Source of the DNA: Amoebophrya sp. A120
Lineage: Eukaryota; Protista; Dinoflagellata
Length of the DNA: 64,000 nt
Assembly: GCA_905178155.1 (NCBI GenBank)
Contig: CAJINV010000006.1
Coordinates: 4,030,130-4,094,129 of the forward strand
Reading direction: 5' to 3'
The position numbers and the translations under genes were made by a program. This document shows, piece by piece, positions 1-62,920 of this stretch (position 1 is the stretch's first letter; every line of letters starts with the position of its first letter). The notes beneath the pieces are model-generated. The model was not told the DNA's origin. It ran no database searches and saw only the letters and a program-made list of their open reading frames with translations.

Positions 1-48
1 ACCCAGCATCACAAGTTTCCACAGACCCCGACACTGTTACAATCCATA
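1..48. mobile_element. Introner family A, partial
   Basis: Degenerate right TIR ending CCATA. Confidence 0.6.
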
Positions 49-3000
49 ATCGTACTGACTATCATATTCCCCATCGTCTTCTGCAACCGAGCTCAGCTGG
101 GAGCCCTTCTATAACGCGCTCAGGTGTAGTTACAATCTCAAACGTTACGAATAGAATCTGGAATTTGTGTTGCAAAATGTGCAACATCTGGCCAACTCCC
201 ACAGGAGCGCGCATGACAAGTTTCGGAGCTCCAAACCACATGAGAATCTGGCGAAATTTGTATTGCGAAAACCCCAAGTCTCTGTACGGTACTCATGCTG
301 TTTATGCAAGACAAATTTCAGATTCTATTGTAAAACGTTTGAGATTGTAACGTCTGAGCAAGCCATACCTTCTGCGACCCCTTTTTCCTCTTTGAAGCCC
401 TGGTGCCCGTCGTTGCGCTAGACGCCGTGCTCGACCGGACACTGCTCATCATCTCCTGAGAGCCATCTTCCGTGCCGTCGTAGGATTGCTCGGTCTCTCC
501 GGAAGTCAGCACCGTCCCCCGGGACATCGAGCTCCTCCGGGAGCTCCGGCTCTTCCGGCCCTTTATGTATGCTGTGCAAAAGTATCGCACTCGTAGTAAT
601 TGCAATCATGCATCACAAAACTTTTTCTTAAGGTAAATCAGCATGAGAAACTCCTTTTGTCATGCTGCGAAAATTTGTAATGCGATTTCTACTAGTACGA
701 TGCTTTTGCAATGCATATCATCTCCTCGCCGGCGAATTCCGATTTCCTGCCCTTTTTCCCTTTGCCCTTCATGGTCTCCCGTTTCTTTAAGATCGGCCGC
801 AAATCCGGATTTTCTTCCCGGAACTTCCGCAGTCGTTCCTCGGATTCCAGCGCCTTTTCCTGCACCGCTTTTCTCATCAGTGAGAGTTGCCGGTACATGC
901 GCCAGGTTTTTTGAATCGTGATGGCCGCCCCGTTATGCATTGCAAAAGTATCGTACTAGTAGAAATTGCAATACAAATTTCCTTAGCATGAGAAATGGCA
1001 TTTGTCATGCGGATTTGCCTTAGCAAAAAGATTTGTAATGCAAGACTTGCATTCATACGAGTACGATAGTTTTGCACACGATACCCGTTCTGGTCGTTTT
1101 GCCGCATGGTCCTTCGTGCCCGCTTCTATCAAATGCAAAAATGTCTGGGTCTGGAAGGTTGGAGCTTGTGATGCTAACTTTGGACTCTACAAAAATCTGT
1201 ATTGCATGATCAGCAACAGGAGTCTAGTTTGTGCTACGCGGGGAGGGCATTTGTCATGCGGAATAGGCATCAGGAGGCTTTCTAAAAATCTGTGATGCTA
1301 GGTCATGCATTACAGACATCCTGGGTCATGCAAAATATGCATGACAAACCCGGAAACATTCCAGACCCAGACATTTTTGCATTTCATAGCTTCATCTCGT
1401 GAATGATGATCGCGGTGATCAACCCGACCGGCGCGCCTAGGAACCCCGTATGAACGTGCGCAATTCCCCCTCGTTCTCATTTCTCATGCAAAATCCAAAT
1501 CCAGTTGTTCCCTTGGATCAGTATTATGCATGACAAATGCTGGAAGCTGCCCAAACACAGCACTACAATCCGTGCATAAACTTGTCATGCACAGCATGCA
1601 CGTGCGCTGGTGTTTGTATTGCTGTTCATGCTATACAAATGAGGGGGAAGGGGAGGGGGAGGGGGAGCTATGTGCACTCTCATACCCCGTCATGAAAATC
1701 CACATCACAAAGTGGATCAACCTGGCCAGCAAGCAGTACTCGACGAGCGGGTAGTATCCAGAAAAAAAAGCGTGTAAGTGTAACTTTCTTTGAGGAACAG
1801 CATCACAAATTTGCTCTACATGACAGAGAAAACCTGTCATGCGTGGTTTGTAAGGGAAAACACACAGGAAAAGAGGACTTCATGGCTGTCTGGCATGACA
1901 GGCGTAACTCTGTTGCATCTTCTGCAAGACAAATTTACACTTACACAGTTTTTTTCTCGCGATAGGTAGTCCCCGGTGGAGTGAATCATCATGAACTGCA
2001 ACGACGCGACGAAGGAGTAGTATCGGGATCTTAAAGACGATTCCTCTTCTTCCGCTTCCGGAGCTAAATCCACCGCGTCATACTCACAGAGACGGTATCA
2101 ACTGCAAATTATATGTCTGGGTCTGCAAGCGTGGAGCGTTAGTTTGTCATGCACATTTTGCATGACCCATGATGTTTGTGATGCATGCCCTAGCATCGCA
2201 GGTTTTTCACGGCCTTCTTGATGCCTATCCCGCATGAGAAATGCCGTCTCCGCATAGCAACAACTGGAGTCCTCTTGCTCTTCATGCTATACAAATTTTT
2301 GTAGTATCCAAAGTTAGCATCACAAGTTGCAATCTTCCAGGAGACCCAGACAGATTTGCAATGCATAGACGGATGAAGTAGGTGAAGATGAGGAGAAAAC
2401 AAATGAACCCGTAGAAAATGCACCACAGCTCGGTGCCGTATTTCGTGAAGATTCTCAAAAGAATCCGCAGGGAGGGGGAAAACCGATCGATGACGCAGAT
2501 GATGAACATCCGGGCCGCGACGGCGAAGGCCGCAATATCCTCAATCCCCTTCCGCGGATCGTTGTCTGAAAAAGTGATGTAGAGGTTTCGCGAATAGACC
2601 CGCATAATGGACGTCGTCGCCGCGGCGATCAGGAACACCCCGTGCCCGAAACCGGCTAGGGTTCGGCAGTACCAGAGATTGGCCGCGGAAAACGTGGCGA
2701 GAAGGAAGTCCACGAGGAGCAAGAGAAGGACGATCAAATCCAGCCACTTCATGAACCGGGCTAGCAACTGACTGGGCTCGAACCCCATCAGCTCCTCGAT
2801 ATCGTCGACGTAATCGACATCGTAGAATTGCAGAAACGAAAACCATATCCAATGCAAATACGTCTGGGTCTGGAAACTTGTGATGCCAAAATGTGCATGA
2901 CTGAAACGCTTTCGAATGCAGCCAAGCATGACAAGTTCTTGCAACGCGGTCTCAGGCGTAGCGCGCATGACAAACTGCGTTTTTGCATCACAAAGAACAC

Positions 3001-6000
3001 TGTGCATTTGTTAAGTAGTCATGCAATACAGATTTCCTTGGAATGTAAGGCCAGCATCACAAGTTCACTTTTTCCAGACCCAGACGTCTTTGCAATTGAT
3101 AAACCAGTCATCGGCATGGGTTTGTTCCTTGAGGTCCGCCATCGCCTCGTCCTTGCTGACGGTGAATTTCGCTAAATGATCGAACTCATCCGCGGGTAAG
3201 TAAACCTGGAAGAGCTTATCCTTCAAGAAAGCCGCATTGGTCGCAGTAGCCCTGTCGTAGACCTTCTTCTCGACATCGCTTGTCGGGTTCGCGTTCCTCG
3301 CGGCTTGAATCGTGAACGGCTTACGCGCTGCACTTCTCGTTACCAATTTTGCGACGATCTTGAATTTGTCACTGTCCAAGAACTATGCATTGCAAACATG
3401 TCTGGGTCTGGAAACTTCTGTTGCTGATGCTTGCATTGCAGACTGGCTGCTGGTACGGCACAAGAGCATGAGAAATTTCCCTCGGCTCCTTGCGGAGCAC
3501 TCATTCGTATTTAGCATGACAAACTGCCTTCCAGCACGATAAGAAAGCCGATCCATCGCATGCATGCATTACAGATTTTGTCGTCCTTCAAAGTTCGCAT
3601 CACAAATCCAGGCCCAGACATATTTGCATTTGATAAAAACTTTGCCTCGGTCGCAATCATCACCGACGCGAGTTTGTTCAGCGACTTCTTAATCTCCTCA
3701 GTGTTGTTTTCCTGCAGCATCTTGTTGAGCGACCGGATGGTAAACCAGATCCTTAGATTCTCCGGGTGCTTTGTCAACCCCGCACTGACGCCGGGAATCT
3801 TGCCCTGCAAGTGCGCAATGTGTCCCCCCGCTTGCTTGAACTGCCGCATTGTCCGCCCTATCAAATGCAAATATGTCTGGGCCTGGGAATTTGTAGTGAT
3901 GCTAAAAAGTGCAAGAGGAAAGCACTTCCTCATGCAGGAAAGCGTGACAAGTTTGCAGAACGCTTTCCCATACGAATTTCGCATGAAAAACTGCGTTTTT
4001 GTATGACATGAGAGGCTACCGCTTTTGTTGGTCATGCAATACAGATTTCACCGGAATGCAAGACCAGCATTCAAAGTTTGTTCAGAACTTTCCAGACCCA
4101 GACATATTTGCATTTGGTACGCCCGAACTCGTGCAAATTGTGCGAGTGGTCGTGGTTGCCGGGGAAAAAGGTTTGGCTTTCCTTCTTTTGAATAAAGGCA
4201 CGCGGGGGGCGGAAGGAGGAGTCGTCGTTTCCTTCTTCTTCTGCCTCCGCTTTGCTGCTTCGCATCTGTGCCTCGACTGCCTGTCTGTGCTCCAACTCCG
4301 CGAACTCTAATTCCACTTCTTCCACCGTTTTCACCAATTTTTCCACCGGTGTCTGCCACCACATGCTCTGCAGAATCTGCGACTTGGCGTGGGTGCTCGC
4401 GAACTCGAAGGAGTCATTTAGCATCTGCAAGTCTTGTTTGAGCTTTTGTTTCTTCGATAATTTCAGTTTTAGCTTCTTTTTTTCCCGCTTTATTTTCAAT
4501 TGCAGAAACGCGCCGGGCTCTTCGTTTTCGTCGCCCTCCTCTTCACCGCCGTCGTCATGGTCATCACCCTCTTCGCCACCATCGTCGTCATCATGGTGTT
4601 CCGAACCGTCGTCGTGCATCTCATCATCTCCATGCTCATCGTGATCGTCGTGCTCCTCCTCCTCGTCCCCACCATCTGCACCTCCACCGTTATTCATCAT
4701 TCCATTCGCCGCCATCGCGCCGGCCGCCCCAGCAACCGCCCCGGCTCCCGCAGCTCCTGCTGCGCCCAACTGTCCATTTAGCCCCGCGCTCCGGGCGCTC
4801 CCGGAGACCGCGCGGGCTTCTTGCGGGATCAGCCCCGCTTGCGCCGCCTTCTGTATGATGGTGGCGACCACGGGCTTGGGTAAAGGTTGCCCCGCTTGGG
4901 TCGTGACCTGCACGATTTCGTCCACGGAATAGCCCTTCTGCGCCAATTTGACCACATCTCCGGGCGTGATCTTCTGACCGGGAACGGAGGGGTCCAACTT
5001 TCCCGGTGGGGACGAGTTTTCTTCATCCTGATGCTCAGCAGGCGTGTTGAGTTGCCCATGATCGTCGGAGTGATCACCTTCATCGGTGTTTTCAGTACCT
5101 TTTCCACCGCCCTTGCTCGGGTTCGCAGCCCCATTCGGAGGGGCATCGGTCATGGGCTGCTCTTCGTCGGTGAGAACGGCGTCTAAATCGGCCTCGCCAT
5201 CCTTTGCACCGGCGGCTTCGTCCTTTTCCCTTTGCAGTTCCTCCTCGTCCTCCAGCTCTTCTTGTCTTTTCCTCTCCTCGTCCTGGCGTTTTTTGTCCTT
5301 CTCTTCCTCCGCGACAATGTTGATGTCCGAAGAGTGAATCCCGTCGGTCAGAGGCTCTTGAACAGTCGTCGGCGGCGTGTTGGATTCGACCGGTTTTGTC
5401 ACCGGGTTGTCGGGGATTTGCTGCGCGATGTTGTTCATCGCGATGATAGCATCCGGGTGCTGCACTCGCTCCGTGTGGAGAATGTGCACGTCCGTCATCC
5501 AAGAAAAAAACTGTGTAAGTGTAGCTTTCTTCGGCTGACAGCATCACAAATTTGCTCTGCATGACCACAGAGAAAACCTGTCATGCGTGGTCTGTAAGGC
5601 AGAACACACTTGGAAAGAGGACCTCGTGGCTGTCTGGCATGACAGGCGTAACTCTGTTGCATGTTCTGCATCACCGATTTACACTTACATAGTTTTTTTC
5701 TTCCATATCCGTCCGCATCAATTCATTCAAAAACCGATCCGATCCGTGCTGCTATCAACTGCAAAAATGTCTGGGTCTGGAAACTTGTAATGCTGCGTTG
5801 GGAATAGTGCATGCTCTGTAATGCACAGGCAAGCATGAGAAATATCTGCCCTTCTTTGTGTTGCGTTTTTCGCATGACAAACTGCGTTTTTGCATGACAG
5901 GCGAAAGGGTCTCGTCTTGGAAACGCATCACAAACTTTTTGGTCATGCCAGACAAGCATGACAAGTCTCGCAATCTTCCAGACCCAGACATTTTTGCATT

Positions 6001-9000
6001 TGATAGCTGCGTCATGATTGCTACCTCCAATGCAAACCCGCAGTTGTGTTCCTGCTTCAAGGGCAACACCAGCCCGATCTCGTGCGCGGATTGGGAGATG
6101 TGGGTTTTCAATTGCTCCACCATGCGAAACCGGTCGAGGTATTCCACGTGGTCTAGATCGAACGCCATGGCAACCGTGTATTGTGGCGGGGCAGCGGGAC
6201 CCGCAGCTCCGGCGCCATTTGCCGCCTATGAAGTGCAAAAGTATCGTACTCGTATGAATGCATGACAAATTCCCTCAGCGTGAGAAATAAAATTTGTATT
6301 GCGGATTTACCTTGAGAAAAAAAATTGTAATGCATGACTGCAATGACTACGAGTACGATATTTTTGCACAGGATACCGCCTGTTCCGCGGCGAACTCTTG
6401 TTCAATCGCCGCTTCTATCAAATGCAAACATGTCTGGGAGTCTGGAAACTTGTAATGCTAGAAGTGAATGATATGCGCACTTCAATACGCAGCCAAGCAT
6501 GACAAGTCTTTAAGCTGCTACGTGTTTCGTTTTCCGCATGGCAAACTGCGTCTTTGCATGACACGCAAGAGGCCCTTCTCCTGCTCATGCATCACAGATC
6601 TAAGAGTTCTGCCACACAAGCATAACAAACTTGCACTCTTCCAGGCCCAGAAATATTTGCTGTGCATAGCTTCCGCGACATCCTCATCCGTTGGTGCTGC
6701 AGCTGCTTTTTTCTCCTTCTTATCTTTTTTGTCCTTCTTGTCCTTTTTGTCTTTCTTATCCGCCCTACTCTCCACCCGGGAAGACAATCCCATCGCCTCT
6801 GCGGTTTCCAATAACGTCTGGAGGAACGAGGAAGAACTTAGCGGCTCGGCCGCTGCACCAGCAGTTCCCCCCTTCGCGCCGCCAAACGGTTTTTCGTACT
6901 TAAACGCGTTTATCACTAGGTCCACATCTTCGGACCTTTGCTTCGGCAAATGTTTCGAGGTCAATCCCACCATTTCGCAGGTCTGCCGGGCGTTCCAATG
7001 CGTGATGTAGCAGGCGTCATCCGTGACGGGGAGAGGGAGGTAGACATCGGAGGAAGACCACAGCCCTGCACCGGAAAGCTCCTCGGGCTTCGTGACTTCG
7101 AAGTCGCCGATGTCATCGTCTGCGTCGCCCCAGTACCTTTTGATTATATGGTGAAAAATTTGTCATGCGGAGATGCGAAATAGAATCGGATAAAACTTGT
7201 CATGCGCATCGACTACGAGTATCACAGTACAAACTCTACCTAGGATCCTCCTCATCGTCGTCGTCCAAATTGTGGTCTGCATGCTCCACGTGGTGCTCGT
7301 CTACGTGGTGAAAATCCGGCTGCTCCCGGATCGTCAGCCGTATGCTGAGCAAAAACGTCCCCATCCCAGAGTCAAGTTGGCAACTCAGCAAAAGAAATCC
7401 AGAAGTTTTGGGGACGACGCATGACAAGTTTCTCTCTGTACTGTAGTACAGGCGGGTAGCAGGCACAGCCGCATAGCAAAGCCATTCTCCTATTCTTCTC
7501 ACAGCATTACAAATTCCAAAACACGACTGGAAATGCCTGTCATGCGGGCGCGTATTCCAAATGTTGCTGTAAATGTAATTGCCAATCTGCATGACAACTC
7601 TGGTATGGGGACGTTTTTACTCAGGATAAGCCGCATCTGCTTGTTATCCCGCAACTGGTATGAATTGCAAAAGCACTATCGTACTAGTAGGAATTGCATT
7701 ACAACTTTCCTTAGCATGAGAAATGGGATTTGTAATGCTGATTGACCTTAGGAAAAAGATTTGTAAATGCATAGCTGCAATTACTACGAGTACGATCCTT
7801 TTTTACTAGATAACTGGCTGTTCTCGCGCGCGCAGACCATAAACCGATCCTCGCCGTGGGAGAATTTTTCGATCATGGCGCGGTTCATGAACGCGTGGTT
7901 GGTAGGGATGTCTAACACCCGGAAAAACTTCGTGACGTACTGCTCCCCGACCGCGTCCGCTATTGTGAGGAAAAATCCCGCCTCCCCATATTGAAAGCGC
8001 ATTTTTCTGAAAATCTGTGATGCAGATTTGTAGTCACAAATCCGGTCTGTCTTGCATGAAGGCAAATCCAGAGACTCCGCCGTATTACGCAGGCGGTTTG
8101 TAATGCTGTTATGCCTACACCGTCGACGTTTTGAATGCTAGGGGCCTACGCCAAAACCTCGCGCCTCAGGCTTGGCATATGCCTGCAGTCCTCTACTGCA
8201 AGACAAATCTGATTTGTATACTGAGATCCAGCATCAGAAACTTCGTTTTGATATGTGGAGGGGGGATCTTTCCTCTTGATATCCGCCCAGGATATTTCCG
8301 ATCCGTATCGATGCTGGTACACCGCTGCGTCGTAGGCGCCGCGGAAGTATGCATTGCAAATATGCCTGGGTCTGGAAACTTGTGATGCAAGTCAGGGAAC
8401 ATTGCGCACATTGTGATGCACTACCGAGCATGACAAATCTGTCCGTGGTTCTGAGTTGCGTAATCCGCATGAGAAAGTGCGTCTTTGCATGACAGGCAAG
8501 AGGAGCTCTTTGCGGCCACGCAATACAGAGCGCGGAGTCATACCAGACTAGCATGACAAATCTCACAATCTCGAAGGCCCAGACATCATATTTGCAGTAG
8601 ATAGAAAGCGGTACTTGACGTTTTTGTGCAAGCGAACCGCGCCCGTTTCTTCGTCGATCTCCATCATCTTGTATCAACTGCAAAAGTGTGTGATTCTGGA
8701 AGAATGCCAGACTTGTCATGCACGTTTTCCATGACCCACGAGCTCTGGTATGTAGGACATACCATGACAGATTCTGTGAGAGTTCTATCATGCCTATCCT
8801 ACATGAGAAATTGCCTCGCGATTAGGTCAAAAGTGGACAGCTTTTGGTAATCATGCAACACAGACTTTTACATGATTCAGATTTAGCATGACAAGTTGCT
8901 TTGTTCCAGACCCAGACATTTTTGCATTTGATATCTTGTCGCCGGCGTCTTCCCCAGTGGGTGTCGTCGACTTCACCGGAGTCAGTGCCCAGAACATCGT

Positions 9001-12000
9001 ATCCACAGCAAACCTACCGTATAATAGACTGTGTACTGGCGTTATTTCTGCATGACAAAACTTTTCCCCAATAGTCACGCAGCATGACAAAAGTACGTAG
9101 TTCAGATTGGCAAAGTTAGTTGTGATGCATTCTGTCCATTGATAATACGGTAAACTTGTCTTGCATACATGGCCATCTGGTTGAACTCATTTTGGTAGAC
9201 GGAGTCCTGGTCTCCCATCCCGATAGCGATGAATTTTTTGTCGCGGTAAAAATTCTTGGGCGGATCACCAACCTCGTAGGGAAAGTCAGATTTGATTTCT
9301 TCCGGTGGGGTTTTTTTCAAATCCCGCGTCATTTTCCGCGGCGTGTGTAACGCTTTCGCGTCCTTCGCGGCCATTTCCTCGGCTTCTCTCGTGCTGTTCA
9401 CGTCCACAATGAGCTTTCTCTCCGTGCCCTCAAAGTACTCTGCGGTCGTCCCCACCTGGATGAGAGACAGCTCGTGCTGCAGCTCCGGCACCATCAGAAT
9501 CGCGGTGTACCCGTGGCAGGTGTAAACAGTCGTGATCGCGATAGAGAGGAAAACCAAGATCCCGACGAAAATGGAGTAGAGTCGGCCGTACTCCGTGTTA
9601 GTCGTCCACATGAATTCGTACCAGCCGCTTCCAAGGGGAGTTTTGTCGGAGCGTTCCGGTAACAATTCTTCAGCTAACTCCTTGTCCTGCAACATTTTCT
9701 CGTGCTTCGCGTACCACTCGTCTTCTTCCTCCTCCTGGGTTTTCTTGCTCTTCTTCCCGCTCTTCAACATGGAGGAAGCGAACCCGGAAGTGTACGCTGA
9801 AGTCGCGCCGGTTTGCTGTGACGTGCGTAAACTAGACCGGTACAACTCGCTATCCATGCCGCTGGAGCCCGGTTCTTGGGAGTCGTAGGACTGAAGCGCA
9901 CTCCCCTCCGGGTAATTGCCTGCTCCTGGACCGAAGGAAGCGCTGCTGTCCGGGTACGCTCCGTCTTCGTCGTAGTTCTGACTGTCGTACCCCTCGTAAT
10001 TGCTGGCCTTGTGCTTTCCTTCCTTCTGGTGCTTATCTTTCGACGCCGGAATTATTTTCCGTTTCATCCAAGTCTTCACATCTTCTTTGTCTTTCCGCTT
10101 GTTCGTAGAAGTTTTTTTTGCACCCGATGAAATTTTAGACGACGACGCGGTTTTATTCTGCTTCTTGTGGTCGCCCTCGGAGTAGTAGAGCTGTTGCCCG
10201 TACTATCGCAAGAAAAAACTGTTTCACTGTGAACTTATGATGCATAGAACGGAACGCAAATGCGTTTGTCCTGCTACACATGCAAGACATTGGATTTTTA
10301 GCTGTGTTTTCCCTTAGGAAGCACGCATGCCAAGTTTTCTTTGTCATGTGTAACAAACTTGTGGTGCAGATCTTGCAAAATCGTCACAGCGAAACAGTTT
10401 TTTCGTGGGATACGTACTCCGACATCTGCCCGTCGGATTGTCCGTATCCCCCGGCACTGTAGCCCGCGTCCGAGGCACCGTATCCCTCCTCATCGTTGTA
10501 TTCCTCCCCATTCTCTTCATTTGCGTCGTACTCTTCGTCGTATTCCCCAGAAGCGCCTACTCCGCTCTCCTCATTTTTCTCCGTCTCGTCGCTCGAGTCT
10601 TCTATCCTATTTGAAAACATCCCCACCCCATAGCTGTCATGCAGATTTGCATCTACAGAAAAATCTGTAATGCACATCCGCAGGAGAGCAATTTGTAGCC
10701 GTGTTCCGGGAAGATTTGTAATGCTGTAAACAGGATGAGCAGGCGTCTTTGTGATGCTGCTGTCCTTGCTAAACAGCACTACACTACAGATGGAAACTTG
10801 TCATGCGTAACTCCCAAAACTCGAAGATTTGTGTTGCAGATTTATCAACTTGACTATGTATGGTGTGGGGACGTTTTTACTCAGGATATCTTCGTCATCA
10901 TCGTCATCGTCGTCGTCGTCGTCGTCCGAGCTCGACATCTCGTCCGCGAAGTAGGCTTATCCACTGCAAATATGTCTGGGTCTGGAAGGTGGATGCAAAC
11001 TTGTTATGCTAACTCTGAATCGTGCAAAAATCTGTGTTGCATGAACCGCAAAAGTTACCCAGTTCTTGCCACAAGATTCAAGTTTCTCATGCGGCTTTTG
11101 CAAAGAACTTTGTGATGCAGCTTCTCGGTGCATTTCTGACCATCTTTGTGATCCACGAGATGCATGACAAACTTTGCTCTCTGTCTTCCAGAGGACCTCG
11201 ACATATTTGCAATTCATAAGGCTTGTTGCATGTAGGATTGGTAAGCGGAGGCGAACAGTCCCGCTGGCAAGGCAAAGATTGCTCCGGCGTATAAATACAG
11301 AATACAGTGAAACGCCCGGCTCATGCCCTGGCCGGAGAAATCATCCCAGGGGGCCTCGCCCGTCAGCGTTAACCCCGTGACCCACATCGCCTTCTATCCT
11401 GTGGAAAAACGTCCCCACGCCAATGCAAATGCGCCATGACAGGAACATTTGTCATGCGCATCTCCATGAGAGGCATTATTTATCTCCAATCGTAATATTT
11501 TGGACTTTGTAATGCTGTAACCAGGATGAGAAGGCGGCTTTCTCATGCGGCTGCCCTTGATGCTAACCAGAACTACCCTGCTGGTGGAAAAAACTTGTCA
11601 TGCGAAACAACCAAAGTTTGTCGATTTGTCTAGCAGATTTCCCATCTTGACTAACGAGTGGGGACGTTTTTCCTCACAATACCTTCCCCGGCGACCCCAT
11701 CCATTCCAAGCGCATCTCGTCGTTGGGGTTTTATCCAGGAAAAAAACTGTCTGTGTAAGTGTAACTCTGTAGGGAAAATAGCATCACAAATTCGCTTTGC
11801 ATTGCAGGGAAAACCTGTCATGCGCAGCCAGTACGTGAAAACACCTGTGAAAGTAACCTATGACGCAGACCCAGCATGACAAGCGTATAACAGTTTTGGA
11901 CTTTCTGCATCACAAACTTACACTCACATACTTTTTTTCTTGCGTAGGTTTCGAATCTCCATCAGGGACCAAAACGCCGCGGCGATCAGCAGAATAGAGG

Positions 12001-24510: not shown

Positions 24511-24581
24511 TCCCAGCGCCATGTTGACTGCGCCGCGCGTGAGACTACAATTGCTCTTGGGCAGTGCAGCCAGCAACAACT

Positions 24582-38351: not shown

Positions 38352-42181
<3,830 letters not shown>

Positions 42182-51409: not shown

Positions 51410-52465
51410 GATTTAGATTTTATTGCACTCACTCAATTATAGAGAAGAATTATATACGAATAGATTGATAAAGATCACGTTTGCTGATGTAGTTCGTGAC
51501 AATTTGATGAAAGCACAAGAGCGCTAGGCTCGTAGGACTATATCAAACCACTTCTAGTAAGTAGAGAGACCGCTGCAGTTAATATTGTTGTTACCAATGC
51601 TGTCGGATCATTAGGTTGGTGTTCCCATACGCCACGCAACGGTACTACCGCTTAGTACAGGGGCAGACGTGGTGGCGGTCCTCGAAATAAGATCAAAAGC
51701 TACTACAGCATTACTTAGTGCAGCCTCCGACTGCGAGGACTACAAAAGCGTTATAAGTACACTTTGTGATCAGCGATTCTTTTTTTTCTGTCGAGAAGAT
51801 CGAAATTTTTCATTTTCTTCAAGGGATCAATTTCTCTTTCTGCCATCCGGAGGTACTTAGGGAGATCCTTATGAATGTGTCGGTGAGCAGCGAGCTCCAT
51901 CGGAGCTGAAAGTCGCGATTCCATTCGTGCTGTATCGATTCATTTCGACAAATTTCCAATTTCACCAACAGTTTGTGTGCAATGTTTAGACGTTCACATC
52001 ATGTGGGATCTTCATTCCAAGCAAAACTTCTTCGTAGCGTCTCTGTCTTGTCTTTTTTCAGGCTAATGGCAATGTGTCAAGAACGGGCCTCGAAAGAGCA
52101 AGTAGAACTTCAATGGAAAAGTATCTATGATCAGTGGTTGTGGTCAAATTTAATTTTACAGAATAAGGTCGTGGTGACAACATAAAGCCGCCGATGTCAT
52201 GTATGAATGCTTCCGTAAATAAAAACCCGTTCTGCAAATTTTGGAAACACTATCGATTCTCTGAATGAAATTGAATTGTCTCAATAAACTCACACAGCTC
52301 CGTGCAATTGATATGATAGATGGTGTAGTCGCAATCGAATGACCCTCTTTGCGTATCAGGCGTGTACTATCAAATGAAGCAGAGTATCTTTCTACTACTT
52401 ATTTAACACAAGAAATAAAACAGGAGGACCTCCTCCTCCAAGAAATGCATGACGAAGTAAGTAAC

Positions 52466-54506
52466 TCAGTCCTTAAAAAAGCGCTCGTACTCGTCGTGAC
52501 CCTCCTCATTGTCCTCGAAAAAGTCCGCCGGCTCAACTTTTCCCTTGTTCGACGAACTGCAGCCCTTCGTCTTGTGCGCAAACGCGTTGCGATGGACGAT
52601 GTGCACTTCCTCCTCCTCATCCTCAAAACCGTCCAAGTTCGCATCGTTGTAGTAGTAGGTTTTATTCCCCGGTTATCGCAAGAAAAAAGTGTTACAGTTA
52701 CACATTGCGTTGCAGGCCAAGCAAGACAGGCAAGCTCTGTCATGCCGGATATGCATAGGAGCCTCGTTTCATAGGCGTTTTCCCGTAGGATTTCTGCATT
52801 ACAAGTTTTCTCTCTCATGCAGAGAAATTTGTGTTGCTGAATTCACTACAAATGTGTAACTGTAACACTTTTTTCGTTGGATACCGGTGCAGATGATCCA
52901 TCCGAAGATCTGAAGCCGCTGGAGATCGTGGCCTGCTCGTATCCTTCGTTCAAACCGAATTGTTCCGCCTCGCCGCTCTCCCGCGCGATGGCTTCTCGTG
53001 CAGACGCGGCATCATGGTGGGACGTGATCGTGGCTGCGGCAAGCGGTGCGCCGATCAGGTGCGTGACATCCCAGACAAACTGTTCCTCCGCTGGGATTAT
53101 CCATTTTTGGAGAAGTATTGAACTGTAGCTGTAGCTGTACCAGTACAAATTGCATGACAACTTCTTTTTATCTTTGAAAACTAAATTTGCCATGTAGATT
53201 CCCGTAGTACAAGACAATGACAACTTGCATACAATACTTTTATTGCAGAAATGGGATAGGTTTCCAGCAAAAGAGTGTGTAGCAGCAGCCGCAGCAGAAA
53301 AACTCCATCAGAATCACGATCAAGATGTCCACAGCGTTCGAGCATCCCTGCCACGCGTAGACGGCGCAGAGGGGAAACAGACAGTGACAACAGCGGTCCA
53401 GCGGGTGATAGCGGCAGCAGCTGCTGCAGCAGCACTCCAGTTCCTCCGTCACATATCGCGAGGAAAAATCCCCCCTCCCAATATCGAAAAGGTACGCCGC
53501 AGAAAATTTGCAATGCTGATTTGCGACCACAAATCATCTCTGTCTTGCAAGAAGGCAACTCCGCAGGCTCCGCCGCATTATGCAGGCAGCTTGTGATGCT
53601 ATTAGGCCTACAGCGCAGACGTTTCTCATGCTAAGCGCCTAGGCCAAAACCTCTGTTCTCAGGCTTGATATAGGCCTGCAGTCCTCGTCTCCAGCAAGAC
53701 AAATCCGATTTGTGTACGCAAATCCAGCATCACAAACTTCGTTTTGATAAGGGGAGGGCGGGAGATTGTTCATTTTGATATCACACTCCGGAAACGCTTT
53801 TGGGATTCGTTCGGTTGCCAAAACAGGAGGAAGATGTATGCATTGCAAATACGTCTTGGTCTGGAAACTTGTGATGCAAGTCTGGGAATGGTGGGCGCAC
53901 TGCAATACGTAGCCAAGCATGGCAAGTTTTTGAGCGGCTATGTAATTCGTTTTCCGCATGGTAAACTGCGTTTTTGCATGACAGAGAAAAGGCTCTACTG
54001 CTGCCCACGCAACACAGATTTCAGAGTCTGTCTGAATCATGTGAGACACGCATGACAAACTTGCATTCTCCCAGACCCAGACATATTTGCATTTGATAAG
54101 ATGAAATACCGCACGAAAACCAAGGACGCGACGACCAGCACCAGACACGTCGGACCGAGAAGCGCGAAGGGGAAGACGAACCCGTAAATAACGGGAAAGG
54201 CAAGCCACTCAATCAGCACCGCCAGGACAATCGTGTTCCGATCGCATCTATGCAGTGCAAAAGTATCGTGCTCGTACTAATTTTTGCGTTTATGCATTAC
54301 AAATCTTGTTTTTTAGGCCAATCCGAATTACAAATTTGATTTGTAATGCTAAGTCAATTTCTTGTAATGCACTTTATACTAGTACGATACTTATTCTGCA
54401 ATGCATAGCATCCCTCCCACGCAAACACAGCCATCACTGGGCAACAGGCTTTGCAGAGCCCGCTGGTCGGCTGGCAACCACAACATTTGTCGAACTCGAC
54501 TGGCAT
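52466..54506 (-). CDS. Cys-rich membrane protein with two Pmp3/UPF0057-like hairpins (paralogue A)
   Basis: MPVEFDKCCGCQPTS...CCPVMAVFAWEGC...CLFPLCAVYAWQGC...NKGKVEPAD...ERFFKD*; frame restored across 5 elements. Pmp3 resemblance judged by eye. Confidence 0.65.
52674..52883. mobile_element. Introner family I
   Basis: TSD CCGGT. Confidence 0.9.
53098..53258. mobile_element. Degenerate B-like introner
   Basis: TSD GGGAT/GGTTT; frame restored (CWKPAEEQF). Confidence 0.7.
53454..53780. mobile_element. Introner family F
   Basis: TSD TCACA. Confidence 0.9.
53837..54098. mobile_element. Introner family A
   Basis: TSD AGATG. Confidence 0.9.
54249..54407. mobile_element. Introner family B
   Basis: TSD GCATC. 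Confidence 0.9.
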
Positions 54507-55548
54507 ATTGTACTATTTCTACGGCCTCGGCAAGATTATTTGCGCACAAGATGTTGAATCCTTTTCCGCGATTTAGGAGAGAGACCCTGGTGAGGAAAAT
54601 AAAGCAAGAGGAACTACGATTCTCAAAATGACTTCACCCCACAGTCAGTCCGAGAAAAAAACTCGCCTCCAAGGTTTTCTAATATGTTTATCCAACTAGT
54701 ATCTGACTTTTCAACTTTTCGAGTTTGTCAGTTACTATTCGTAGTGGTAAAGCAGGTAAAAAGAATCGCACTATTTTTAGCGAAGTGATTGCGATTGACA
54801 CGAAGAATAAAAGGTGGCATTCTGAAATTCATCAAGGGGAGAGTACGATGGTGATAGTTCAAGTGTTTAGCACTTGCTACAGAAACGACTACGACTACCT
54901 CTACCCACGACACCAAGTATAATGGGACGATTTGTTCTTGCGCCACGAAGCTTTCTTTTCTTCCGGACCTAAGCATATCACCCCTAAGTACCACGACCCA
55001 CGCAACGACCTAGTACTGTGCTATGTCTAAGACATTGCGTGTGAAAAACCGGGCCAGTAGAAGGTCTTCACGTCGGAGCAAGATAGAACTACCGAGCGGT
55101 AATAAACGGCACTAAATTTTTATTGAACGCAACATCATCTAGCAAAGCCGCAGTTAAGAAGTACTTATCCCCTTTCTCTTCGTCGTCGTCCATGGTCATC
55201 TGTATCAAATCATATCATACAGCACTACTCCAATTGTTGTGTCAGCGAACGATCTCCGCTTTATATTACGCAATTTGTTCCAATCAGCGTTCTTGCGACT
55301 CAAATTTCGTCCAATGTTCTGGCCAAGACATCTTCAACAATCGCCGAGCTATATCTTTAAAATTCAAAACAACAGCCTCAATTATAGCTACCAGTTTAAC
55401 TTCATTGTACAAGGAAAACAAAAATCGTGGTCCAATGTTGAATGATAGTACACAAGACAGAAACTAACGTAGAAGTGTGGTGGATGTGGAACAAGTAGCA
55501 CTACAACTAGCACAATGTCTACTGACAACATCAATTTTTTCCGAATTT

Positions 55549-58041
55549 CTAATTTTTGAAAAATTTCTCGCCCTCGTCGTCGTCAGCTGCATGGTGATCG
55601 ATGAAACCATCTTCGTCCGCGGGTTGGACTTTCCCCTTGTTGCGCGAGAACGAGCTCTGGGGGCCCTTCGCGACGACCTTCTTGTCCTTCTTCTGCGCAA
55701 GCACAGCATATCGAAAGGAAAAATCCCCTCTCCCCATATTGACAAGGTACGTTTTCGAAAATTTGTGTTGCTGATTTGTGACCACAAATCGTCCCTGTGT
55801 TGCATGAAGGCAACTCCAGAGCCTCCGCCGCATTCTCCGGGCGGTTTGTCATGCTCATGTTCCTACAGCGTAGACGTCTGTCATGCTAAGCGCCTAGGCC
55901 AAAACTTTTCTTCTCAGGCTTGATATGAGCCTGCAGTCCTTGCCCAGCAAGACAAATCGGATTTGTGTACGCAAATCCAGCATCAGAAACTTCGTTTTGA
56001 TATGGGGAGGGGCGATTTTTCATTCTGATACAGCAGCGGGATGCTTTTTGCGGTGGTGTACGTCTCCTTCTTCTTCCTCCACGAACTCGTCATCGTTGTA
56101 GAAGTAGTACCCGTATCCTGTGCAAAAGCGTCAAAAACGCACTAGTGATTGCAATATTTTTGCATGCCAAATCTCGTTCCCTAGATAAAATGGCACGACA
56201 AGCTCCGGAATTTGTTTTCGAAAAAATTTGTGTATGCATTTGAAACTAGCGCTCGACGCTTTTGCAATGCATAACCCGCCTCTGTTGTAGTCGTAGGTCT
56301 TGAATCCGTGCGCCCGGGCCGGGTCGTAGTAGGTATCCGAGTGGGTGATCGGATCGAAGTCGTCGTTGCCCACCCCGTATCAAATGCAAATGTGTCTGGA
56401 TGTCTGGAAACTTGTGATGCTGGTTGCCGGATCAAGAGAACGCCACAAATGACGGCTCAGCATGACAGGTTTTTGAGCTAATATGCTGGTTATTGTCCAC
56501 TCTGCATGAGAAACTGGGTTCTTTTGCACGACAGAAAAATGCAAAAAAGGCGCTTTAATATTTGGGTACCTTGCATGACAGGCTTGACAGTCATACAAGC
56601 AGAGCATGACAAACCTGGCATTTTGTTTCCAGACCCAGAGGACATATTTGCAATGCATACCTCGTAGTTCCCGTCACCCCAAGGCGAAGGACCTTCGCGT
56701 GAGGCCCCCGCAACTATCGGAGCACCGATGACATGCGCCGAATCGCCGCCCCAGATGAGCTATGGATTGCAGAAGTATCGCACTCGTATAAATGCATTAC
56801 CTCAGCATGAGAAATAAAATTTGTAAAAAAAAAAATGCTGATTCACCTATTATAAGTAATGCATGACTGCAATACGAGTACGATACTTTTGCACAGGATA
56901 TGAACTGTTGGTCAGCGGGTGTCCAGCAGCAGACTGGGTACAGGCACCCGCAGCCAGGTAACAGGCAGTTCAGCACGATCACACACAGAATGTCGACGAC
57001 GCTGCTACACCCCTGCCAGGCGTAGATCGCATGCAGCGGAAACCAGCAGTGGCAGCAGCATATGACAGTGCACAACTCCCCCTCCCCCTCATTTGTGTTG
57101 CACGAACAGCAACAGAAGCATCAGCAAGAATGCCGGTTCTGCATGAAAAATTTGCACTGGAGTGTAGCGCTATTTGGGCTACCACGACAACTTGTCATGC
57201 ATAATAGTGACAGGAGGGAAAGGGTGGATCGGGTATTCTGCATGAGAAATGAGAACGAGGGGGAGTTGTGCACTGTCATACAGCAGTCCAGGGGGTGACA
57301 ACGGCAGCAATAGACTTTCCGCTCTTTTTTCGCGTCGACGGGGTGAAACCGCTTCTGCGTCCTATGAGAGTGCACAACTCCCCCTCCCCCTCATTTGTCA
57401 TTCAATTTCCCAAATCCAGGCTCTGCCTCTTCTTAGAGGCACTGTCTGCATGACAAATTCTGGCATCCCAAATGGCACTACACTCCACTGTAAGTTTGTC
57501 ATGCGAAACCGGCATTCTACTTGCTGATGCATTTACTTCTGCCGTTCATGCTATACAAATGAGGCGGGGGGAGTTGTGCCTTGTCATACGTCCCCTTTGG
57601 CTGCCACAGTAACGCAAACAGGCAGCGACACGGACACCCAAGGGTATCGCACAGACAGGCCAACCACAAGTTGCTGCTGAACCCCTCCCACGCGAAGACC
57701 GCCAGGAGCGGGCAGCAGCATCGGCAGAGCAAGCTTATGAAATGCAAAAGTGTCTGGGTCTGGAAGGTTGGAACTTGTGATGCTAACTTTGGACTTGAAA
57801 AAGATCTGTATTGCATGACCAGCAAGAGGAGTCTAGTTTGTGCTACGCGGCGGGGAGGGCATTTGTCATGCGGAGTAGGCATCAGGAAGCCGTCTAAAAA
57901 TCTGTGATGCTAGGTCGTGCATTACGGACATTCTGGGTCATGCAAAATATGCATGACAAACCCGGCAACATTCCAGACCCAGACATTTTTGCATTTGATA
58001 CAGCTGGTCGGCTTGCAACAAGCATCTTGTTGGCGGGGCAT
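55549..58041 (-). CDS. Cys-rich membrane protein with two Pmp3/UPF0057-like hairpins (paralogue B)
   Basis: MPRQQDACCKPTS...CCPLLAVFAWEG...CWFPLHAIYAWQGC...NKGKVQPAD...EKFFKN*; frame restored across 7 elements; collinear with paralogue A. Confidence 0.65.
55709..56030. mobile_element. Introner family F
   Basis: TSD CAGCA. Confidence 0.9.
56114..56273. mobile_element. Introner family B variant
   Basis: TSD ACCCG. Confidence 0.85.
56378..56659. mobile_element. Introner family A
   Basis: TSD CCCCG/CCTCG. Confidence 0.88.
56761..56900. mobile_element. Introner family B
   Basis: TSD TGAGC/TGAAC. Confidence 0.88.
57061..57280. mobile_element. Introner family E
   Basis: TSD CAGCA; long near-perfect TIR. 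Confidence 0.9.
57363..57588. mobile_element. Introner family E
   Basis: TSD CGTCC. Confidence 0.9.
57736..58000. mobile_element. Introner family A
   Basis: TSD AAGCT/CAGCT. Confidence 0.88.
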
Positions 58042-59746
58042 GGTTGTCGCGATTGGTTCTTCGGGTGGAGATTACTTATCAATTTTTTCTTGTTCGATGT
58101 ACAACAAAGAGTAGAGCGGGTCAACAACTTTTTGTACAGTCCTTGTATTAAAACACCAGCACGACCTCAGTAGAGAGTGCCTTTTTTGCAATACTGTTCA
58201 ATTGAACAGGATCAATAAAAACTTCGATTGTGGGTGAGTGCCAGCACGAGTTTTTGTCCTTGCTACGTTGTTGATGGTGAATCGGTTTATTGTTGAGTCG
58301 TAGGTACACCAATTATGCGATCACTTGCGCCCACTACTCTATACATCATATAGGGCCGCCCACGACCCGTACATTTCTTGCGATGACACACGATGACGTC
58401 GATTACGACGACTTGTATAAGCGATTCGTATTCAGCAGATGAAGTGTGCTTTTTGTCATCTTTCTGATACCGCACACGTGGTTCTTATCTATTTACGACT
58501 AGAGCTTTCATCCACGACCCCGGTCAACCGAGCAGGAACGAAGATCGTGTTGAAATAACAAATTGGTACTTACAACACAAGATGATCCTTGGAAGTAGAA
58601 AAGTTCAGACGAAAGCAGTTCTGGACCTGCTTACACGACCACATTTTGAATGAGAATGATCATCGCGATGCATGATGGCATCGAGAGAACGAAGCGAAGG
58701 GGAAGTGGAACATGCGCGAAGCCACGCAAACACGGAAAGTTTACGTAAAGATGAAACCGGGTGGATATAATTACTTCTGCTCTCGTACTTGTTAATACTT
58801 GTTAAATATTGTACACAAATCGAGTGATCGCAACAAATCAGTACGGGTATAACCCTGCACCAGGGTTGCGACTGCGACACGACCAAATCAGCAAATGAAT
58901 AATTTACAATCGTATAGAAATCCTGAGTTAATTTTGTACAAAACGAATCGAATTTGTAGCAGCCAGATGTACACATGAAAATCCAAATCCAAAATAATTT
59001 CTGCGTATGCTTGCAAACTAAGCCTACCTGTCGTTTGAAATTCAATTTTCAGTCGTCGAATGCGCATCAAATTCATGAAAAGTCTTTTCTTCGAAATACG
59101 GCTACTTAGCTTCCTTTCTCTTCTACATGACGAGTTCCATTCACAGAGCTTATTGCCAAAGTAGTTAATGATCTTCATACTTTCATTCATTTCCATCATC
59201 TCTCCTGTTCTTTTCCACCAGTGAGTACTTCGTGCGTTTTTTACACCGTGTAGGTGCTTGGTGGTCGCGGCGGCAAGAGCGTCTCATCCTCATCGCTCTC
59301 CGCGATCGGCTCGATCTTTATGCCAGTGGAGAGAACCACGACTTTCCACCCTCGTAAGAAGTACTTCTCATTTGTAGTCATGCGGAAGGCCAAAGAACTC
59401 ATGTCTTGCTCTTGCTTCTTTTATATTGCATGACAAGTTGTTCATCATGAAACCGATAGATACCTATCTGGAATTTCGCTGTGAAATTTGTCATGCTTTT
59501 CTGTTGCAACTCTGCGAATGAGAACAACGAGGGGGGAAGCTGCTACTTGCAGTCATCTCCACTTTCGTACTTTTGCCCGTGTCTCGGGAGCCTCTCGCCC
59601 CGGGAATTCTTGACCTTCTGGAACCAAAGTGACCAGTAGTCGAGCTAGTTGTAGAGGCGGCTCCCCTGGTGCTCCGTCCTGACACTTCTTCTTCCTCCGC
59701 CTCTGGGCCGAGTTCTGCGCCCGGCACTGGCCGTAACCCGCAACAC

Positions 59747-60013
59747 TATCCAAGAAAAATAAATAATGTGTTAGTTCGCATTAAAAAATTTCAAGCCTCC
59801 CAGTACACTTCTCTTGTCACGCTCGATAATGATATGCTTATGCATCTTCATAGCAGGCTACTATTTATTCGTCCATTTGTGGTTTCATCTTCACACGCAG
59901 CTACCGAGACAAAATTTTTTGATTTGTCTGTCATGCGAGACATGTGAGGATGCTGTAGTTCATAATCCAGAAACAAGGCTAATAGTCTAACACAGTTTTT
60001 TTCCACCTGGATA
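59747..60013. mobile_element. Degenerate D-like introner (suggests an unresolved gene at ~59.2-60.1 kb)
   Basis: TATCCAAG...CCTGGATA; TSD AACAC/AGCAT. Confidence 0.6.
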
Positions 60014-60309
60014 AGCATCCGTAGTGTCGCAGCAGCGGGCTAGAATTATTGGGAAATTGAAAATTCGTATAATTTTTTTCAAATTGATGAATCTTCATCT
60101 TTCTTTGGAAAGGTGGAAGGAAGAGGAATCAAAATCGAAAAACCAAACGACGCACACGAAAATTATCGAATAAAAATTTGCCGCTCTACTTCGACGTTCG
60201 TGCTACAACATCATCGAACCCAGGAGCTAGTGCCATCTTTATCTCTTAGTTTTAGCACCTAATGGCTGCTATAAAAATTCCAGCTACTGAGTTGTACTAA
60301 TATAGCAAC

Positions 60310-62920
60310 TTACACGATCCCGCCCGATGATGCATGGCCGGAGATGTAGCGCGCGTCGCTCACCCCGTCGTCGCTGGCCTCTTCCAGCGTCCACCGCCCA
60401 TAGGCCGCTGCCGGGATGCCGAGAAAAAAGAGCAGGAAGCAGCGCGAAAACAGGCACCAGGTATCCATGTAGTAGAACGGAGCCGAGTTGGTGAACGCCT
60501 TCATGGTCAGCAAAGTCTTCATTCCCTGCCGCGCCGCTGAAGAGGTCCATCAAATGCAAAAATGTCTGGGTCTGGAAACTTGTGATGCTGGGTGGCGTAT
60601 CATGAGGAGGCCACAAGTGCTGGCTCAGCATGACAAGTTTCTGAGCTTCTAGGTGTTGCCTACTCTGCATGACAGACTGCGTTTCTGCATGACAGAAAAA
60701 TGGGGCTCTTGGGTAACGTGCGTGACAGATTTAAGAATCATGCCAGACAAGCATGACAAACATGCACTCTTCCAGACCCAGACACTTTTGCATTTGATAA
60801 GGTCATGAATACGGCTACAACCTGCAGGAGAAGGAGGAAGAAGAGCGCTAGAATTTAGAAAGAAAAAACTGCTTTAATGTGACAACTTCTTTGCAAGTTA
60901 TGCAATACAAGTTCGTATTGTCGTGACACATAGTTGCCATGCGTGCTTCCTAAGGCTAAAGGAATAAATTACGGCTACAAATCCACGGTCTTGCATGTGT
61001 GGCATGACAAACACGTCTGCGATGCATTTTCTGCATGACAAGTTTACAGTGAAACAGTTTTTGCTCGCGATATGGAAATGCGCTGTGTTTCACGCTGATC
61101 ACTTTTGCGAAGCAGACCAGGTACAGCATGCCGAAAGCAACCAGGGTGGAGAGGAAGCCGTTGCACTGTGCCTGAATGTATCAAATGTAAAAACGTCTGG
61201 GTCTGGACACTTGTAATGCTGCGTTGGGAATAGTGAATGCTCTGTGATGCACAGCCAAGCATGAGAAGTATCTGCGCTTCTTTCTCTTTGTGTTGCGTTT
61301 TTCGCATGACAAACTGCGTTTTTGCATGACAGGCAAGAAAAGGGTCTCTTCTTGGACACGCATCACAAACTTTTCGGTCATGCCAGACAAGCATGACAAA
61401 TCTCGCATTCTTCCAGACCCAGACATTTTTACATTTGATAGAATGGGGCCCATTGGAGCGGGACTTTTCATCACCGCCGCCTCCCCATGTGGTCCTTGCG
61501 GCCGCTCGTCTCCTATCAAATGCAAATATGTCTGGCTCTGGAAGATTGCCAGGTTTGTCATGCATATTTTGCATGACCCGTGCAGTCTGTGATGCGTGCA
61601 CGAGCATCACAGATTTTTAGAGTGCTTCCTAATGCCTATTCCGCATGAGAAATCCCCTCTCCGCGTAGCCCAGTCCTCTTGCTGGTCAAGCAATTATACA
61701 ATTTTTTTTTGAATCCAGAGACAGCATCACAAGTTTAGAATCTTCCAGACCCAGACACTTTTGCATTTGATATCTCCACCCTCGGGGGTTGTCGTTGTCC
61801 CGTCGCGCTCGGCCTCCGCTTTCGCGTCGGCGCTTTTCACAAACTGCAGCTTCTCGCCATATCCTGAGGAAAAACGTCCCAACCCCAGAGCTGTAATGCA
61901 AATCTACATGCTTAAATTGCTTCTCATGCGGAGACACATGAGAGGCGTTTTCTAGTGGCGATTGGAGATTTGTCATGCTCGAATCAGCGTCACAGACTGG
62001 GTCTGTAATGCCGCTGCACTAGCTAAACACGACTACACTGCGAGCCCAAATTTGTCATGCGCGATAGCGAAAGCTTAGGGATTTGTCTAGCAGATTTCTC
62101 ATCTTGACTATGGGGGGGGACGTTTTTACTCAGGATACGCCATCCGATGTGATCACCTTTCTCGGTAACAACACCGTCGCATATCCAAGGAAAAAACTGT
62201 GTTAGTAGGAGGAATAGCATCACAAGTTTGCTCTGCATGACAGAGAGAGCCTGTCATGCGCGGCTAGTACTACGTGAAAACACGTACGGAATTATATATA
62301 AAGAGGCTCTGACGCATGTGTCTAGCATGACAAGTGTAAACTGTTTTGCATTTTCTGCATCACAGACTTGCACTTACACAGTTTTTTTCTTGCATATCGC
62401 AGCCTGACCGTGCAGTGCTTTGGCCTCGTGCTCCCTCGTGAATCCGAATTGCAGATAGAGGACCGCAAACGTGACCTCGCAGGGGATAAAAACCAGCAGG
62501 AGACCGAGCAGCACAATGAGCATCGCCCGTCTGTGTCCGCTGGTTGCCGTCACCGACGCCGCTCTCGTCCGGGCCGCTATCAAATGCAAATATCCCTGGA
62601 TGTCTGGAAACTTGTGATGCTGGCTTGGCAATGGTGGACACACTGCGATACGAAGCCAAGCATGGCAAGTTCTTGAGCTGCTATAAATGTGTTGCGACTT
62701 CTGCACGGCAAACTGCGCTTTTGCATGACAGGCAGGCGACTCTCATCCTGCTCATGCATCACAGGGTGAGAAGTCATGAGAGACAAGCATGACAAACTTC
62801 CATTCTTCCAGACCCAGATCGATATTTGCAATGCATAGCCGCCTCCACCTGCTGAAACGCTTGAGACGCCTTCTTGGCGGCGGTTAGCCGCGAACTCGGG
62901 TCGTCGGCAGTCGCGTCCAT
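60310..62920 (-). CDS. Hypothetical multi-pass membrane protein
   Basis: MDATADDPSS...MLIVLLGLLLVFIPCEVTFAVLYL...TLVAFGMLYLVCF...ALFFLLLLQVVAVF...; frame restored across 7 elements into ORF 60310..60522. Confidence 0.55.
60548..60799. mobile_element. Introner family A
   Basis: TSD AGGTC. Confidence 0.9.
60854..61072. mobile_element. Introner family G, degenerate
   Basis: TSD TAGAA/TGGAA. Confidence 0.78.
61179..61440. mobile_element. Introner family A
   Basis: TSD GAATG. Confidence 0.9.
61514..61772. mobile_element. Introner family A
   Basis: TSD TCTCC. Confidence 0.9.
61860..62137. mobile_element. Introner family C
   Basis: TSD CGCCA. Confidence 0.9.
62182..62396. mobile_element. Introner family D
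   Basis: TSD TCGCA. Confidence 0.9.
62578..62837. mobile_element. Introner family A
   Basis: TSD GCCGC. Confidence 0.9.

Follow-up and report, generated by a model that had tools for sequence, protein, structure and literature searches.

Evidence for a single cut register in the introner elements of Amoebophrya sp. A120 and its possible reading by a modified spliceosome

Introduction

How is an intron removed precisely if it lacks GT-AG borders, and where do its borders lie if a direct repeat on either side makes several positions equivalent? This question is raised by a stretch of 64,000 nucleotides from the dinoflagellate Amoebophrya sp. A120 (assembly GCA_905178155.1, contig CAJINV010000006.1, positions 4,030,130 to 4,094,129; hereafter the window), in which genes are interrupted by elements with terminal inverted repeats (TIRs) that start with TAT, end with ATA and are flanked by a target-site duplication (TSD) of 5 bp. 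Here we report that these elements are very probably removed from RNA at one fixed register, N-TAT...ATA-NNNN, i.e., with one base before and four bases after the element, and discuss whether a modified spliceosome might read this register from the transposon ends.

Elements of this kind have been described before. Farhat et al. (2021; PMC7789003) report introners of strain A120 with inverted repeats consisting of TAT, 7 nt and at least three A, and with direct repeats of 3-5 nt (5 bp in the legend of their Figure S19). In that account, 29,850 copies in 1,954 families have RNA-supported non-canonical ends, U1 small nuclear RNA (snRNA) was undetected in A120, and the intron border “remains unknown” and is called variable; the borders could not be placed because the direct repeat hides them. 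The elements of the window are these published introners, as they agree in host, inverted-repeat motif, 5-bp repeat, removal from RNA without GT-AG borders and occurrence as repeated families. Because the host is strain A120 and the published motif matches, the class is not new, and a first-pass annotation of the window, which pointed to TIR and direct-repeat introners of Amoebophrya, made the right link. The spliced product of the GPN2-like gene of the window is identical in 517 of 517 residues to the annotated A120 protein CAD7954353.1 (P0001).

Results

Inverted-Repeat Elements Occupy a Third of the Window

Complete TAT...ATA elements with 5-bp TSDs number 88 (87 obtained by search and the copy 50070-50404 by blast), and a partial one is cut by the window start, which agrees with the first count of about 88. 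They are 140-360 bp long and account for 21,243 bp, a third of the window. Both ends are exactly TAT...ATA in 80 of the 88 elements, the TSD is perfect in 62, carries one mismatch in 23 and two mismatches in 3, and positions 11-13 from each end are occupied by A in 76-82 elements, as in the published motif. When 5-bp repeats around inverted ends were sought with no requirement for TAT, 52 of the 63 hits were TAT...ATA elements, and two shuffles gave 2 and 3 hits. A further TAT...ATA pair at 44997-45174, with a 15/20 inverted match and no 5-bp TSD, is possibly a decayed element in a non-coding or untranslated region (UTR).

The elements had been thought to belong to about ten unrelated families. 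Many families do exist, and their number varies with the clustering threshold (13, 18 or 41 clusters, the largest with 34, 14, 10 and 9 copies), but they are not unrelated at their ends, because a single terminal consensus is common to all of them. GT-AG borders can be read in any equivalent register in only 2 of the 88 elements and, as claimed before, in none for the elements in the GPN2-like gene (element 42) and in the EF-hand region of a CDPK gene (element 52).

RNA-Type Contigs Lack Each Element Plus Exactly Five Nucleotides

The first-pass annotation claimed that deletion of an element with one TSD copy restores the reading frame at essentially all sites. With element plus 5 nt removed, 82 of the 88 junctions indeed fall inside open reading frames (ORFs) of at least 150 aa, and long minus-strand ORFs emerge, one of 1996 aa that spans 23 elements and one of 1288 aa that spans 14. 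Out-of-frame offsets place 47-60 junctions inside such ORFs, none of which then exceeds 537 aa. Since offsets 2 and 8 perform like 5, this test sets the removed length only modulo 3, and the exact value of 5 nt beyond the element comes from RNA.

Four contig sets from two samples of one study were used, whose RNA label is a guess; contigs so labelled behave as mRNA in that two GT-AG introns are skipped and a poly(A) end is present. Among the joints listed, RNA-type contigs lack the element and exactly 5 further nt at each of the 23 exonic or UTR sites that were readable, 14 of them by direct joints (elements 58-64 and 69-74, i.e., 13 rows, and element 42) and 9 by exact sums of lengths (elements 43-45, 50-52 and 66-68). 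The predicted loss of 274 nt from the GPN2-like gene was confirmed by a direct joint. These counts, and those for DNA unitigs below, hold among the matches listed, outside which the joints of elements 76, 77 and 80 probably lie. Element 65 (47620-47768) leaves the RNA inside an ordinary GT-AG intron, on whose 3' end it lies, which corrects the view of the elements as non-GT-AG introns at this site. Two raw-read RNA runs, X8 and X9, were uninformative with 5 and 1 matching reads.

One Register Fits All Informative Junctions

Let k be the number of bases of the upstream TSD copy that are kept in mRNA, a quantity that is informative only where the two TSD copies differ. The value k=4 was set as a prediction before the RNA junctions with mismatched TSDs were scored. 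These junctions allow k of 4-5 (elements 58, 66 and 68), 4-6 (element 60), 0-4 (element 59), 1-5 (element 61) and 3-5 (elements 62 and 70), so that k=4 is the sole value that fits all eight of them, with a probability of about 0.002 under independent uniform registers. At 8/8 junctions the mRNA takes its base from the upstream copy at positions 1-4 and from the downstream copy at position 5, and the intron is therefore N-TAT...ATA-NNNN. In plus-strand coordinates it extends from element start -4 to element end +1, the host genes being transcribed from the minus strand (Table 1).

As the exclusion of k=5 hung on element 59 alone, orthologue residues at position 5 were sought. The orthologue from Amoebophrya AT5.2 matches the downstream copy at both well-aligned position-5 sites (elements 26 and 29, with 8 and 9 of 17 flanking residues identical), and internal protein repeats in locus L054 favour the upstream copy at 3/3 position-4 sites; thus, 5/5 well-aligned protein comparisons agree with k=4. 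No preference for any register emerged when 94 TSD mismatches were tested by codon likelihood and for stop codons. Taken together, one fixed register is the conclusion in which we have the greatest confidence.

Table 1. Features of the window, with the register N-TAT...ATA-NNNN applied to introner introns.
Feature	Position	Strand	Evidence and remarks
88 complete TAT...ATA TIR elements, 5-bp TSDs	110..62837	-	element searches; strand from coding
89th element, cut by window start	1..48	-	blast of elements against the window
GPN2 intron, element 25861-26129 + 5 nt = 274 nt	25857..26130	-	RNA-type contig X1 joins 25855 to 26130; register inferred from other sites
CDPK EF-hand intron, element 38820-39072 + 5 nt	38816..39073	-	elements 50-52 gone, exact summed length 240 nt in X1; EF-hands by Pfam
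Element past CDPK stop codon (3' UTR)	37968..38275	-	removed from RNA too; RNA-type contigs
Element 58 intron, element 45468-45720	45464..45721	-	mismatch at sense position 4, upstream kept; joint 45462-45721, slack 1
Element 59 intron, element 45764-45913	45760..45914	-	mismatch at sense position 5, downstream kept; joint 45759-45915, slack 4
Element 60 intron, element 45964-46215	45960..46216	-	mismatch at position 4, upstream kept; RNA joint
Elements 61 (46321-46592) and 62 (46717-46995)	46317..46996	-	mismatches at positions 1 and 3, upstream kept; RNA
Elements 66, 67 and 68	49620..50950	-	position-4 mismatches at 66 and 68, upstream kept; contig ends 49618/50950, 290 nt between
Element 70 intron, element 53098-53258	53094..53259	-	mismatches at positions 2 and 3, upstream kept; RNA
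Element 26 intron, element 12362-12640	12358..12641	-	position-5 mismatch V/E; orthologue (P0026, Amoebophrya AT5.2) has E = downstream copy
Element 29 intron, element 14358-14560	14354..14561	-	position-5 mismatch A/V; orthologue has V = downstream copy
Ordinary GT-AG intron, donor GTATT	45323..45429	-	RNA joint
Ordinary GT-AG intron, donor GTATT	47618..47925	-	RNA joint; element 65 (47620-47768) at 3' end, downstream TSD copy gives AG
Ordinary GT-AG intron candidate, donor GTATT	29468..29629	-	162 nt = RNA length; one of 7 length-compatible G-start pairs, picked by coding model
Empty site, single AGCTC	40637..40641	-	matching CDPK locus L089 has a 264-bp element between two AGCTC copies
GPN-loop GTPase (GPN2-like) ORF	24585..26442	-	Pfam PF03029; best match A120 protein (exon 99%), relatives named GPN-loop GTPase 2
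Very long membrane-protein gene, ORFs 7239-18866 + 55-7162, 37 elements	55..18866	-	one orthologue covers both ORFs

Two Bases Are Constrained Only on the Transcribed Strand

From a metagenome scan, 127 loci (523 kb) of a close relative were obtained, in which the same elements are present. Together with the 88 elements of the window, 284 of the 454 elements of the relative, oriented by coding strand, form a set of 372 elements, the 170 of uncertain orientation having been dropped. Within this set, the first T of the element shows no variants, as compared to 10 at its mirror position (p=0.002), and the third T shows 11 variants, as compared to none at its mirror A three bases from the far end (p=0.001). 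The asymmetry disappears when the loci are read on an arbitrary plus strand (4/3, 3/4 and 3/5), and the families insert in both orientations (13/8 and 7/6).

In the k=4 register, the two bases that never vary are U(+2) and A(-7), the latter being followed by T. A(+3) is present in 370 of 372 elements and T at +4 in 361, whereas +1, -1 and -2 are free. Of the features of U2-type introns, U(+2) and A(+3) are found in these elements and GT-AG (or GC-AG) ends are not, GT-AG occurring in 11 of 372, about the chance rate. The apparent scarcity of A at sense TSD position 4 in the window (7/88) was rejected as a target-site bias, since it is absent from the 284 independent elements (70/284).

The terminal ends are predicted to pair in 91% of the elements on the sense strand; a hairpin is predicted on both strands, and at TIR positions 4-14 of the transcribed strand G-U pairs (147) do not outnumber C-A pairs (181), so that guidance of the cut by structure alone is not demonstrated. 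As the constraint on U(+2) and A(-7) is confined to the transcribed strand, sequence seems to be recognized as well as structure. A purely structure-guided route thus finds weak support, in that the ends are predicted to pair, but the G-U count shows no excess and single bases are held.

Ordinary introns of the window offer a comparison for the 5' end, their donors being mostly GTA(T/C). The donor is GTATT in both RNA-joined GT-AG introns and in a length-matched third one. Ab initio calls, reduced from 142 to 34 by dropping element-like, GC-rich and non-YAG calls (a strict filter left 9 introns), form a noisy set in which GTA starts 27/34 and GTAT 13/34 introns, as compared to intron backgrounds of 0.27 and 0.06, and in which no branch motif was found at a fixed distance. 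Some ordinary GT-AG introns (e.g., 29468-29629) contain internal CATGACA-like motifs as in the elements and may, judging by these motifs, be decayed introners. In the published intron classes, all top non-canonical ones have T at the second position (9/9 in A120); in strain A25, whose inverted repeat starts with TTA, the top classes are TT-NN in 9/9 cases (PMC7789003).

Insertion of the Elements and Search for a Mobilizer

The 5-bp repeat is made on insertion, because the element of locus L089 lies between two AGCTC copies and the window has a single AGCTC at the matching CDPK site. The TA..TA termini resemble those of IS3EU/GingerRoot transposons, which usually have a TSD of 6 bp (PMC10045372) as compared to 5 bp here, and this likeness is only a lead towards the mobilizer. 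For A120, an introner family that has TIRs together with integrase-like ORFs is reported in PMC12130899.

A convincing autonomous copy, i.e., a long one with the same TIRs and encoding a transposase, was found neither in the 64 kb of the window nor in 523 kb of related loci, and among 12 long TIR pairs the ORFs of four, examined by eye, included none that was transposase-like. In six longer elements (457-697 bp) that have good TIRs and a perfect TSD of 5 bp (L009:5314-5770, L017:571-1051, L025:4530-5025, L057:855-1387, L049:765-1461 and L018:3862-4492), no nested element was found. A 2.5-kb TIR pair with TSD (L040:476-2934) encloses an ORF of 415 aa that by eye does not resemble a DDE transposase, and may be a chance pairing. 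The TIR pattern had no match in viral contigs, and the window had no Rfam match.

At 42677-44250 the window contains a GC-rich block of about 1.4 kb between similar direct repeats (starts 42807 and 44195; tandem copy at 42769). Its DNA depth is raised 2- to 3-fold, variants are present, and run X1 does not cover it; it is possibly a different repeat element, and the four ORFs at 42.9-44.3 kb have no Pfam match.

Host Genes

No Pfam family was found for the very long membrane-protein gene at 55..18866. An ORF at 18972-20985 on the minus strand probably joins it via a predicted GTATT intron of 189 nt, which would give a membrane protein of more than 3,800 aa, likewise unmatched in Pfam, whose gene extends beyond the window start. 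Protein searches with one exon of the long gene and one exon of locus L051, under a length limit of 2000 aa, gave no match. The minus-strand genes at 18972-20985 and 21657-23818 have a near-identical N-terminal stretch and an internal block of 40 residues in common, a similarity that suggests recent partial duplication. Element positions differ between the adjacent cysteine-rich paralogous genes at 52469-54512 and 55552-58071 (minus strand), and by eye the cysteine-rich paralogue agrees with the upstream TSD copy at elements 76 and 77.

Discussion

We propose that A120 introners are cut at their fixed register by a modified U2-type spliceosome that branches at A(-7), a reading to which we assign a probability of about 0.5-0.6; spliceosomal use of an N-UA donor, considered by itself, is rather more probable than the complete reading. 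Insertion of the element would be due to a DDE/integrase-type transposase that makes a cut with a stagger of 5 nt, and the first TA of the element would supply U(+2) and A(+3) of the donor, like the TA of an ordinary GTA(T/C) donor, with +1 left free. A(-7), three bases inside the far end, would be the probable branch adenosine, and the 3' cut would fall a fixed 6 nt after it with no need for AG, the docking check of the second step having been dropped by the spliceosome. The terminal hairpin would only help to bring the ends together. Since the departing intron takes with it one nucleotide of the upstream TSD copy and four of the downstream one, a target of any sequence is restored to its original state. 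The P complex of yeast shows G(+1) paired to G(-1), A(-2) to the branch A and U(+2) to U6 (10.1101/212811), and given these pairings, the joint loss of G(+1) and AG with retention of U(+2) and A is what the relaxation of one step-2 check would predict. A more comprehensive version, which we hold tentatively and at somewhat less than even odds, states that the A120 spliceosome lacks U1 and both the G(+1)-G(-1) and the AG checks, that it reads U(+2)A(+3) and the branch A from the transposon termini and places the 3' cut at a constant distance of 6 nt, that the cut offset corresponds to the 5-nt stagger of the transposase, that insertions in either orientation and at any sequence are spliced without a scar, and that A25 follows the same N-UA rule. 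A relaxed spliceosome of this kind, if present, would silence an insertion at almost any site.

Several points weigh against this proposal. The use of a spliceosome is itself inferred, and the RNA evidence consists of contigs, with the guessed label and the single study mentioned above, which drop rare registers; it covers 24 of the 88 elements, namely the 23 exonic or UTR ones and element 65. Position 5 of the register is represented by one RNA junction and two orthologue residues, while element 2 at position 1 and element 31 at position 4 disagree, the former in a poor alignment (3/17 nearby residues identical) and the latter with a poorly aligned paralogue (5/17). With regard to the branch, A(-7) is missing from one element among the 119 whose orientation is weak, lies in a predicted base pair of the terminal hairpin, and is preceded two bases upstream by T in 167/372 elements, equal to the mirror end, so that no selected branch-site consensus is apparent. 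Ordinary introns have no fixed A at -7 (14/34 ab initio), and 6 nt from a branch to the 3' cut is short. Finally, the published table of intron classes may reflect the preference of the aligner.

The main rival keeps the register and replaces the spliceosome by a Euglena-like enzyme that recognizes the hairpin end of the TIR, cuts 1 nt before and 4 nt after the element and joins the exons, so that the intron is set free in linear or circular form. The predicted pairing of most ends on the sense strand, the freedom of both terminal dinucleotides and the undetected U1 snRNA (PMC7789003) are all compatible with such an enzyme, and in Euglena the cuts lie at set distances from a paired motif (PMC12501133). 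The nonconventional introns of Euglena (PMC12501133; PMC11282704) are also alike in lacking GT-AG and in having paired ends and TSD-like repeats. However, their signature, N3CDG...CH'GN5-6|R, is absent from the window elements, in which +4 is nearly always T, the spacers are 1 and 4 nt, and UA and A are kept. Moreover, an enzyme reading paired ends does not account for the missing G-U excess, for the pair +4/-7 being dispensable from the +4 side only, or for the kept 5' bases being precisely +2 and +3 of ordinary donors, and we therefore regard it as unlikely, though as the strongest competitor. Still less probable is a spliceosome that uses the same N-UA donor and branches elsewhere in the element, with A(-7) as a base recognized by a protein that sets the 3' cut. 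The lack of a U2-type consensus at -7 and the short distance to the cut would fit this alternative, but no further invariant base is present near the 3' end, and an invariant A that tolerates being unpaired would seem to resemble a branch nucleotide.

Two further explanations concern the register and the RNA level themselves. If the cut slid within the TSD, agreement on one register would be due to chance or to a majority form. The description of splice sites as variable relative to the hairpin (figure legend in PMC7789003), the ability of contigs to hide minority forms and the two discordant protein comparisons point in this direction; as 8/8 RNA junctions and 5/5 well-aligned protein comparisons fit a single register, we consider sliding very improbable. 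Alternatively, the elements might be cut from DNA in the transcribing stage, making RNA splicing unnecessary. Precise loss of one TSD copy does resemble recombination between direct repeats, but eight listed DNA unitigs span 12 element ends unbroken; the DNA-type run is a possible source of the assembly, and its contigs hide rare alleles. In addition, constraint and register follow the transcribed strand although the families insert both ways, and the element within an ordinary intron leaves together with that intron, so that DNA excision has hardly any probability left. The first-pass annotation had offered structure-guided RNA splicing or DNA excision under one rule; precise removal from RNA without GT-AG in many families stands, and the excision branch is not supported.

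Fritillaria borealis has introns derived from miniature inverted-repeat transposable elements, with TIR and TSD, that are handled by an adapted U2 spliceosome (PMC11282704; PMC13326754); in contrast to A120, where the target is arbitrary and the terminal dinucleotides are free except for U(+2), they prefer AG-AC or AG-AT ends and have a TAC target, and U1 is kept. In Micromonas and Aureococcus, DNA transposons likewise turned into introns and the TSD gives exact restoration (PMC11282704), but insertion is limited in sequence because a canonical site is needed from the target, whereas the elements studied here show GT-AG at about chance. The introners of A25 are similar in having TIR and direct repeat and, by published description, belong to other families with another inverted-repeat motif; judging from Table S4 of PMC7789003, their TT-NN class also reads as N-U-A with a free acceptor. 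The introns of the AT5 and Kv strains, on the other hand, are canonical.

What is proposed here beyond the published account of A120 (PMC7789003) is a single register, a constraint on U(+2) and A(-7) that is specific to one strand, and a match with GTA(T/C) donors. Whereas the class is known from that paper, the cut position and the rule were not found in print: neither a fixed register nor a branch position nor the strand asymmetry is stated in the literature found on Amoebophrya introns or in passages of PMC12005148, PMC11453091, PMC12787238 and PMC13326754. The wording on direct repeats “four nucleotides upstream” and the logos in PMC7789003 may already hint at the register, and Roy et al. 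(2023, Curr Biol) and the datasets of PMC12130899 may bear on it. The single register turns the varied splice-site dinucleotides into one rule, N-UA...A-N6, and names the bond to be expected, a 2'-5' link from the base before TAT to A(-7). If the proposal is true, the GU-AG rule would be separable in a natural spliceosome into kept and lost parts, the intron annotation of Amoebophrya genomes would be corrected, and it would be explained how transposons that do not choose their targets could spread to exonic sites by the tens of thousands.

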